Shown: positions 35,762-36,842 of the stretch, in pieces
Layout: each line of letters begins with the position of its first letter
Position numbering within the stretch: position 1 is the stretch's first letter
Notes under the pieces: generated by a model
Told to the model about the DNA's origin: nothing
The model's input: the letters and a program-made list of their open reading frames with translations, nothing else
The model's database searches: none
Source: Deltaproteobacteria bacterium
GTDB lineage: Bacteria > Myxococcota > Kuafuiibacteriia > Kuafuiibacteriales > Kuafuiibacteriaceae
NCBI GenBank assembly: GCA_040218735.1
Contig: JAVJQW010000012.1
Coordinates: forward strand, 46,880 to 110,879
Direction of reading: 5' to 3'
Length of the DNA stretch: 64,000 nucleotides
Program-made: the position numbers and the translations under genes

Positions 35762-36112
35762 ATGGAAGTACCCGTGCTCGACCGCGCCCGGCTCGAAGAC
35801 GCCTCCGCCGGCGACGAGGAGTTCCTCCGAGAGCTCGTCGACATCTACGTCGAGGACGCCGAAGAGCGCCTCGCGGAGATCAAGGAGGCGCTGATCAGCG
35901 CCGACGAGGAGGCGCTCGGACGCACCGCCCACCAGCTGAAGGGTTCGAGCGCAAACATGGGCGTCGTGTGCGTCGCGGACCACGCGAAGAAGATGGAGGA
36001 CCTCGCCCGCGAGCACGCGATCGCCGACGCCGCGGAGATCCTCCCGAGCCTCGAGCACGAGCTCGGACGCGCCCGCGCCGCCCTGTTCGAAATGGCCGGC
36101 ACCTCCGTTTGA
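35762..36112 (+). CDS. Hpt (histidine phosphotransfer) domain protein
   Basis: 116 aa. AHQLKGSSANMG is the Hpt phospho-His motif. An AGGAG sits just upstream of the ATG. Confidence 0.7.
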   Translation: MEVPVLDRARLEDASAGDEEFLRELVDIYVEDAEERLAEIKEALISADEEALGRTAHQLKGSSANMGVVCVADHAKKMEDLAREHAIADAAEILPSLEHELGRARAALFEMAGTSV

Positions 36113-36143
36113 CCTGTCGCCCGACGCCCTCGATCATCACGCG

Positions 36144-36842
36144 GTGATCGACGAAGGCCTCGACATCCTCGCGCGCCGAAACGCCGGCGCGCTCACGCCC
36201 CTCGCCTTCCTCGACTTGGACGTCCCGCTGTGGCCCGGGCTGCACGTGGTAACGGGCGACGTCGGCGTCGGCAAGTCTCAGCTCGCGCTACAGGCCGCGA
36301 TCTGCGCCGCGCGCCACGGCGTCGTCACCGCGGTGAACACCCCGCTCGCCTCGGTCGCGGAGACGACCGCGCGCCTGCTCGGGCTCGTGAATGGTGCGAG
36401 CTGGAGCGCGATCTACGCGGGTGACCTCAGCGTCGACGCGGGCGCGCTCTCCTCCCTCCCGCTCGCGATCCGCGCCGCGCCGACGGACGAGACACTCGTG
36501 GTCACCGATCGTTGCCCGCGCCACATCGATCGTGATCGCGAGCAGACCGTCATCGCGACCGTCGACGCCCCCATCACGGTCGACGCCGCCTCCCTGATGG
36601 ACCTCCCCGCGGACCGCGTCCTCGCGCACGTGCAGATCGACCCCGAGCTCGTCGCCGCCGCCGACACCATGTTCGTGCTGGCGACGATGCCACCGCACGA
36701 GCCGGGCGCGTGGCGTGGGGCGCGGCTCGCCGTCGCGCACCGCCGCGCGGGGGTGCCACGTTGGATCGATCTACGCTTCGACGGGACGCGCTTCGAGCGC
36801 GAGGCGGAGGAGATTCAGATCGAGTTCGACGCGGAGTCGTGA
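36144..36842 (+). CDS. RecA-superfamily (KaiC/DnaB-C-like) ATPase, hypothetical
   Basis: Walker A GDVGVGKS and a Walker B-like TLVVTD. 232 aa. Confidence 0.55.
   Translation: MIDEGLDILARRNAGALTPLAFLDLDVPLWPGLHVVTGDVGVGKSQLALQAAICAARHGVVTAVNTPLASVAETTARLLGLVNGASWSAIYAGDLSVDAGALSSLPLAIRAAPTDETLVVTDRCPRHIDRDREQTVIATVDAPITVDAASLMDLPADRVLAHVQIDPELVAAADTMFVLATMPPHEPGAWRGARLAVAHRRAGVPRWIDLRFDGTRFEREAEEIQIEFDAES

Follow-up and report, generated by a model that had tools for sequence, protein, structure and literature searches.

In a 64,000-nucleotide stretch of DNA from a Deltaproteobacteria bacterium (contig JAVJQW010000012.1, positions 46,880 to 110,879; hereafter the window), a gene for an Hpt phosphotransfer protein and a gene for a small P-loop protein of 232 residues (P232) lie directly downstream of the genes for exosortase O (XrtO) and a PEP-CTERM membrane protein of the TIGR02921 family (Table 1). 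An initial annotation, made from the sequence without database searches, had proposed that the two downstream genes are co-transcribed with the exosortase pair and thereby link a phosphorelay component and an ATPase to the surface-protein module. Comparison of this locus with its relatives leads us, with moderate confidence, to a different reading, in which Hpt and P232 form a conserved signalling pair of two genes that belongs to this chromosomal site and not to the exosortase system. It is unlikely that the pair serves the surface-protein system as a dedicated regulator, and XrtO-TIGR02921 is best read, from the gene orders compared, as a two-gene cassette that was inserted upstream of Hpt in one sub-lineage. 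In the following, W denotes the window locus, and L001 to L096 and the P-numbers denote the loci and proteins with which it was compared.

Hpt and P232 at loci with and without the exosortase

TIGR02921 is a large family: 1093 of the scored candidates match at E≤1e-10, and those with names come mostly from filamentous cyanobacteria. We examined 80 other TIGR02921 genome loci, the majority cyanobacterial, with flanks of up to 10 kb, 73 of which had at least 1.2 kb of sequence downstream of the TIGR02921 gene. Single-sequence searches and a hidden Markov model built from 14 Hpt sequences (at E≤1) found an Hpt or P232 homologue at none of these 80 loci and, judged by their gene content, XrtO/TIGR02921 systems in general are without an Hpt or ATPase component. 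One of the 80, L012 from a Polyangia metagenome-assembled genome, was considered as a hemH-syntenic relative of the window and was ruled out, its downstream gene being unrelated.

Relatives of the window Hpt were found at the same chromosomal site without the exosortase. At L093, where Hpt is 60% identical to that of the window, the flanks are the same (a glycosyltransferase family 9 (GT9) gene upstream, hemH and men genes downstream), and the interval between GT9 and Hpt holds no TANGO2, XrtO or TIGR02921 gene but a hybrid kinase of PAS-HisKA-HATPase_c-REC architecture; a 243-residue orthologue of P232 (P243; 42-44% identity, E 5e-54) follows 31 nucleotides (nt) downstream of Hpt. The hybrid kinase of L093 (5156-6663) is split into two gene calls by one frameshift near 5845-5851, which reflects either an assembly error or pseudogenisation. 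At L095 (Hpt 51% identical) the order is TANGO2-27 nt-Hpt and at L094 (41% identical) it is GT9-22 nt-Hpt, while L096, a short contig, and the contig of P0148 carry Hpt with neither XrtO nor P232. A further pairing was found on a contig of 2.1 kb, on which P0152, a 281-residue protein about 35% identical to P232, is encoded 64 nt downstream of a 124-residue Hpt gene with no TIGR02921-sized gene upstream of the latter. The Hpt-P232 pair, with a spacer of 31-42 nt, is kept in W, L003, L005, L001 and L093. At this site Hpt is found where the exosortase is lacking, both together with P232 and alone, which makes it the older resident. Hpt and P232 are regarded here as a conserved unit, and the functional link to the surface-protein module that had been proposed is for the most part not borne out.

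A gene for a CheR-type methyltransferase was observed on the opposite strand, one or two genes from Hpt, at L001 (10686-11462), at L096 (3066-3851) and on the P0148 contig (2047-2847), and its recurrence might point to a chemosensory-like pathway as the original setting of Hpt. The CheR gene is absent near Hpt in the window, where P232 abuts hemH; the two genes are convergent there and their 3' ends overlap by 28 nt (36815-36842). The spacing between P232 and hemH is 2 and 10 nt in L003 and L005, and in L001 the CheR gene lies in between.

The order XrtO-TIGR02921-Hpt-P232 itself is kept in four lineages (W, L001, L003 and L005) with proteins 55-70% identical; against the window, P232 of the other three is 54-71% and TIGR02921 60-68% identical. 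In this clade Hpt starts 7-8 nt past the TIGR02921 stop behind an AGGAG, or, in L001, overlaps the TIGR02921 gene by 16 nt, and P232 follows 31-42 nt after Hpt. An alternative explanation makes Hpt and P232 accessory or regulatory parts dedicated to XrtO/TIGR02921, with a phosphorelay and an ATPase that control sorting or are co-controlled with the surface protein. We consider this unlikely. The close packing of the four genes, all on the + strand (a 4-nt overlap of the TIGR02921 ATG with the XrtO stop, then gaps of 8 nt and 31 nt, with no terminator-like site), its persistence through the divergence of four lineages and the fact that another exosortase system has a His-Asp system tied to it, PrsK/PrsR (PMC1569441), are all in its favour, but the two proteins are missing from all 80 other TIGR02921 loci, and at L093, L094 and L095 Hpt, or Hpt with P232, occupies the same site without XrtO-TIGR02921, as Hpt also stands without it on the L096 and P0148 contigs. 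The P0152 pair, with no TIGR02921-sized gene upstream, points the same way. Moreover, the four loci share their flanks as well, GT9-TANGO2 on the left and hemH with menaquinone genes on the right, so that common descent alone explains the gene order and shared ancestry suffices for the adjacency. Conservation beside the exosortase, which the initial annotation had made a check of its proposal, thus holds within the four-lineage clade and fails at the 80 other loci.

Several points nevertheless weigh against the reading of Hpt and P232 as a pair that belongs to the site. The coupling of Hpt to TIGR02921 within the window's clade is very tight and has outlasted considerable divergence, and a functional tie of Hpt and P232 to the exosortase system may have been acquired secondarily in this clade. 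By pairwise identities L094-L096 are outgroups, and L001 and L093 are about equally far from the window; because the order in which L001 and L093 branched off is ambiguous, L093 could have lost or replaced the XrtO-TIGR02921 cassette rather than never having had it. Outside the syntenic lineage the Hpt-P232 pairing is represented by one short contig, that of P0152. The candidate promoter described below is a consensus match, the second hexamer of which is not kept (it is shifted) in L093, and nucleotide binding and lack of hydrolysis by P232 are read from its motifs only.

With regard to transcription, no terminator-like site was found between 31.5 and 36.9 kb. The sole promoter-like match in 8.5 kb (0.4 expected) lies in the Hpt-P232 spacer and is a candidate promoter of the sigma-70 type, TTGACC-17 nt-GATCAT. 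From the end of its second hexamer it is 6 nt to the GTG of P232, which is not preceded by a Shine-Dalgarno sequence, and L001, L003 and L005 retain both hexamers with spacers of varying length. Since this match is kept in the four members of the clade, P232 may have a promoter of its own, and since Hpt starts 7-8 nt past the TIGR02921 stop or overlaps the gene, co-transcription of Hpt is plausible. No boundary between Hpt and the exosortase pair is set by the candidate promoter. The tight spacing and the lack of a terminator-like site speak for co-transcription of Hpt with the exosortase pair, as originally suggested. A leaderless P232 mRNA was also considered and is no more than a possibility, because L093 does not conserve the second hexamer.

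The sequence of events that would account for these gene orders begins with an ancestor in which Hpt stood behind a GT9-TANGO2 operon, GT9 being inferred as the ancestral upstream neighbour of Hpt in the window's lineage. In a sub-lineage P232 would have been gained downstream of Hpt, and in the ancestor of the window's clade the XrtO-TIGR02921 cassette would later have entered between TANGO2 and Hpt. Hpt is now most likely co-transcribed and translationally coupled with TIGR02921, and P232 could be transcribed from its own promoter as well as by read-through. If so, insertion alone can tie a signalling gene transcriptionally to a surface-protein sorting cassette. Close spacing behind an exosortase substrate is, in this case, no evidence of a dedicated regulatory link.

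Properties of Hpt and of its probable partner P232

The initial annotation had described the 116-residue protein as an Hpt protein with an HQLKGSSANMG motif, and this identity was confirmed. Its match to Pfam PF01627 extends over all 84 positions of the profile (E 9.2e-17; 61.5 bits, the cut-off being 24.6), its phospho-acceptor His57 stands in an HxxKG context, and His57 with the surrounding AH.LKGSSAN.G segment is invariant in 14 homologues. An AlphaFold2 (AF2) model built with these 14 homologues (pLDDT 90.8) has four long helices and a short N-terminal helix, with the fold of a four-helix bundle and with His57 on helix 49-66. The top Foldseek match of the model is HptB of Pseudomonas aeruginosa (7c1i; TM 0.89, root-mean-square deviation 1.8 Å, 33% identity), and the further top matches are all Hpt proteins. 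The window Hpt is thus an ordinary single-domain HptB-like phosphotransfer protein.

No hybrid kinase was found among the open reading frames of the window that were scanned with Pfam or with three receiver-domain queries, so the partner kinase of Hpt is probably encoded elsewhere in the genome. A two-component cluster does lie about 12.7 kb upstream of Hpt (20091-24519, - strand), with a VWA protein, a classical HisKA-HATPase_c kinase that has no receiver domain and, next to this kinase, two response regulators at 20.1-21.6 kb, one of the OmpR type (REC+Trans_reg_C) and one of the NarL type (REC+GerE); kinase and regulators together occupy 20.1-23.0 kb. Nothing connects this cluster with Hpt.

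Both Hpt and P232 are real genes under constraint. Their coordinates and spacing, the AGGAG and the Walker A motif GDVGVGKS reported from the sequence were all found as described. In a window with 69% GC, the GC contents at the first, second and third codon positions are of the coding type (0.77/0.40/0.90 for Hpt and 0.76/0.50/0.91 for P232), and independent gene calls include both in four public assemblies of this organism, among them an 11.5-Mb JGI contig and NCBI GCA_040222965.1. The orthologues of both are intact, with ratios of nonsynonymous to synonymous substitution (dN/dS) of 0.16-0.55; for P232 against its three orthologues the ratio is 0.2-0.5, like that of the neighbouring genes, which argues that P232 is maintained under purifying selection.

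P232 alone reached no Pfam or NCBIfam cut-off in the libraries searched, the best match being AAA_25 (E 0.005, 16.9 bits against 27). It has no Pfam match to DnaB_C, which its longer relatives do have (PF03796), so that a DnaB-C-like label rests on the relatives, on profiles and on the predicted fold. The AlphaFold model is compact (pLDDT 89.5, pTM 0.86), and the PDB entries that Foldseek ranks highest for it are C-terminal domains of DnaB (E about 1e-9, TMq 0.65-0.71); there were 549 PDB matches at E≤0.001, and among the 50 listed DnaB came first, followed by Twinkle, RAD51 paralogues and RecA. With a profile that included the longer relatives, the PDB match to DnaB had an E-value of 1.8e-19, that to KaiC one of only 0.31. 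We are confident, from the model, that P232 has a DnaB C-terminal/RecA fold; of the earlier label "KaiC/DnaB-C-like" the DnaB part is supported and KaiC is not specifically so.

In alignments, P232 keeps the Walker A motif at residues 38-45 with Lys44, as well as Glu73, Arg77, a Walker-B-like Asp122, Asp174 and Arg201. The catalytic Glu after strand 2 (motif H1a, Glu96 of RecA) is lost, the "GLELG" of the longer relatives being "NTPLA" in P232, and alignment to RecA agrees. The H3 sensor "SST" and the H4 DNA-binding loop "GKESGEIEY" of the relatives are replaced or deleted. Compared with the longer relatives, P232 is without about 80 N-terminal residues and two internal segments, and it has no DnaB N-terminal domain. 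P232 is therefore very probably not a helicase, to judge from these motifs. Because it is under purifying selection but is without the catalytic, H3 and H4 motifs, it is most likely a nucleotide binder without efficient hydrolysis that serves as a non-helicase partner of Hpt.

The only close relatives of P232 are four proteins of 231-236 residues, and the next tier consists of proteins of 340-400 residues with DnaB_C/AAA_25 domains. An exhaustive profile search gave 484 relatives at E≤0.001, two of them at E≤1e-30. Both of the longer relatives whose contexts were examined lie in integrase-bearing islands, and the two that were scanned against PHROGs match phrog_19, "DnaB-like replicative helicase"; P232 itself has no PHROGs match. 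At L086 (4699-8759), L087 and L088 (4798-9044), longer DnaB_C/AAA_25 relatives stand inside a conserved block of unannotated genes, in the order of a 55-65-residue protein, one of about 355-375 residues, the ATPase and one of 527-637 residues, and this block looks like an uncharacterised replication module of an integrative element. Relatives as short as P232 form a thin set of 206-297 residues with a common P-loop, in which an invariant Arg77 follows a near-invariant Glu73 at a distance of four residues and the C-terminus carries a distinctive acidic motif, LRF[ND]G..FE.E..E..L. Within this short family Lys44 is kept in 13 of 14 members (P0261 has Arg) and Arg201 throughout, the position of the catalytic Glu is acidic in two of the 14, and the Walker B Asp lacks conservation in the wider set. 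When metagenomes were scanned with the short-family alignment, all the matches were longer relatives of the DnaB_C type or fragments, mostly on short contigs and none with Hpt nearby, and a scan of viral contigs found no relatives of P232. A defence-system reading was dropped when PADLOC gave no match for Hpt, P232 or their relatives.

Two other explanations for P232 have to be weighed against a nucleotide-binding partner. P232 could be an active P-loop enzyme that acts directly on Hpt, at His57 or at a different residue, by analogy with HprK/P, a P-loop kinase that acts on the phosphocarrier HPr. It would then be a kinase or phosphatase dependent on ATP, or else a gatekeeper that is itself gated by a nucleotide. 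The strict adjacency of Hpt and P232 in six lineages, the purifying selection on P232, the retention of Lys44 in nearly the whole short family with Glu73 and Arg201, and the position of P232 after a histidine kinase and Hpt in L093, where the output of the relay is expected, would fit such an activity. However, the canonical catalytic Glu is missing in 12 of the 14 family members, the Walker B Asp varies across the wider short family and the literature search gave no precedent, and we hold this explanation to be quite improbable. The other explanation is that P232 is the functionless, decaying remnant of a DnaB-like helicase gene of a mobile element and stands beside Hpt by chance. While the nearest longer relatives, of 340-400 residues (DnaB_C/AAA_25, phrog_19), do lie in integrase-bearing islands and P232 has lost its N-terminus and its catalytic motifs as well as two internal segments, the frame is intact in five lineages with dN/dS like that of the neighbours, GC3 is of the coding type at 0.91, the fold is compact and confidently predicted, the short proteins share their C-terminal motif, and pairing with Hpt recurs in P0152. 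A remnant is thus very improbable.

Proteins of the Hpt family transfer phosphoryl groups between the receivers of hybrid kinases and downstream receivers. By analogy with HptB, His57 of the window Hpt would take a phosphoryl group from the receiver domain of a hybrid histidine kinase and hand it on to another receiver domain. P232 would most likely bind a nucleotide and act as a non-helicase partner, a switch or a scaffold of the relay. A more far-reaching proposal, which we regard as speculative and rather unlikely, is that Hpt and a short P-loop protein of DnaB/RecA fold, a catalytically remodelled nucleotide-binding domain of helicase origin, constitute an unrecognised phosphorelay module, in which P232 gates, phosphorylates or dephosphorylates Hpt or serves as the output, and that this module was captured into the XrtO/TIGR02921 operon in the window's clade. 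If this were true, the state of a phosphorelay would be tied to the production of a sorted surface protein. If the Hpt-P232 pairing is functional, Hpt phosphorelays would gain a non-receiver partner, namely a domesticated helicase-type P-loop domain. What remains is a small, rare and uncharacterised family of Hpt partners.

Other features of the locus and its surroundings

As listed in Table 1, the unit is bounded on the right by hemH. The TIGR02921 protein, whose TAG stop is at 35751-35753, has a VIT domain and a C-terminal PEP-CTERM signal (Pfam, NCBIfam) and is presumed to be the substrate of XrtO.

Table 1. Features at and around the Hpt-P232 locus, in window coordinates
Feature	Position	Strand	Basis and remarks
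Glycosyltransferase family 9 (GT9) gene	27459..28574	+	Pfam Glyco_transf_9 in identical public contig
TANGO2-family gene	28562..29278	+	Pfam TANGO2 E 3.4e-26; 13-nt overlap with GT9
REP-associated tyrosine transposase (RAYT, IS200-like Y1)	30616..31320	+	Pfam Y1_Tnp, NCBIfam REP_Tyr_transpos
Exosortase O (XrtO)	31573..33003	+	NCBIfam TIGR04489 E 3.4e-100, 335.9 bits against cut-off 250
TIGR02921 PEP-CTERM integral-membrane VIT protein	33000..35753	+	TIGR02921 E 2.2e-183, 611.9 bits against cut-off 200
AGGAG ribosome-binding site of Hpt	35754-35758	+	Sequence; present in L003 and L005 too
Hpt gene, 116 residues	35762-36112	+	Pfam Hpt; ATG is the 9th nt past the TIGR02921 stop
Candidate sigma-70-type promoter	36109-36137	+	Consensus match only; fills the Hpt-P232 spacer
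P232 gene, 232 residues	36144-36842	+	GTG start is the 32nd nt past the Hpt stop
Ferrochelatase hemH	36815..37861	-	Pfam Ferrochelatase E 3.7e-96

The RAYT gene between TANGO2 and XrtO is a feature of the window genome only and is not found at that position in L001, L003 or L005. It is followed by two 58-nt direct repeats (31342-31459), 93% identical and 60 nt apart, which are probably REP/BIME-like elements. The interval between RAYT and XrtO is 127 nt shorter in a JGI assembly (L089) than in an NCBI assembly (L090) of the same organism, which suggests that the repeat copy number varies. On the right, a long co-oriented cluster on the - strand (36815-46705) comprises hemH, MenC-like, MenA (UbiA), MenD, isochorismate synthase, a UbiE/MenG methyltransferase and HMG-CoA reductase, together with a DAHP-synthase-family gene and a polyprenyl synthase, and is syntenic in all examined relatives. 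Farther downstream (50201-55179, - strand), a 1022-residue protein with a PPC pre-peptidase C-terminal domain adjoins a CotH-kinase-family protein; both are unrelated to Hpt-P232. No RNA families were found by Rfam in the entire window.

Comparison with known systems

The P232 family and its pairing with Hpt were not met in the family libraries or the literature searched: a search for XrtO, exosortase O, TIGR02921 and TIGR04489 gave nothing relevant, and no precedent was found for an Hpt with a DnaB-like, KaiC-like or RecA-like ATPase. KaiC has two tandem RecA-like domains with catalytic Glu pairs and Ser/Thr autophosphorylation sites. P232 resembles it as a RecA-superfamily P-loop domain in a signalling context, and differs in being a single degenerate domain without the catalytic Glu. 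The likeness to the C-terminal domain of DnaB (PF03796) and to phrog_19 is closer, and includes the RecA-like core, Walker A, an Arg in a C-terminal "K.R.G"-like motif and an N-terminal helix at the place of the DnaB linker helix. However, the primase-binding N-terminal domain of DnaB is absent from P232, which has 232 residues against 340-470, its catalytic Glu is replaced by Pro/Leu, H3 and H4 are lost and there are two internal deletions. Unlike the DnaB-like/AAA_25 proteins of mobile elements, P232 is chromosomal, and its neighbour in the pair is Hpt instead of an integrase or replication gene.

For the kind of link that had been proposed, the initial annotation knew of no precedent, but one exists in PrsK/PrsR/PrsT, a His-Asp system tied phylogenetically to PEP-CTERM/exosortase A systems (PMC1569441), although an Hpt next to XrtO has not been described. 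PrsK/PrsR is a classical kinase with a sigma-54 activator and was defined by its exact co-occurrence with PEP-CTERM genes in Proteobacteria (PMC1569441), whereas the window has an Hpt only, which shows no co-occurrence with XrtO/TIGR02921 outside one clade; TIGR02916 and TIGR02915 (PrsK/PrsR) are not among the NCBIfam matches of Hpt or P232. The closest counterpart of the window Hpt is HptB (PA3345) of P. aeruginosa, a stand-alone Hpt of a multi-kinase phosphorelay whose sensor kinases are encoded at other loci and which, co-operonic with its partners downstream, has control of surface and biofilm behaviour (PMC5085249). The two proteins share a single domain of about 115 residues, the Hpt helical bundle and the His in HxxKG. 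They differ in what follows them: the operon partners downstream of HptB are HsbR, a response regulator, and HsbA, which is an anti-anti-sigma factor, whereas the gene downstream of the window Hpt encodes a RecA/DnaB-fold P-loop protein without a receiver domain.

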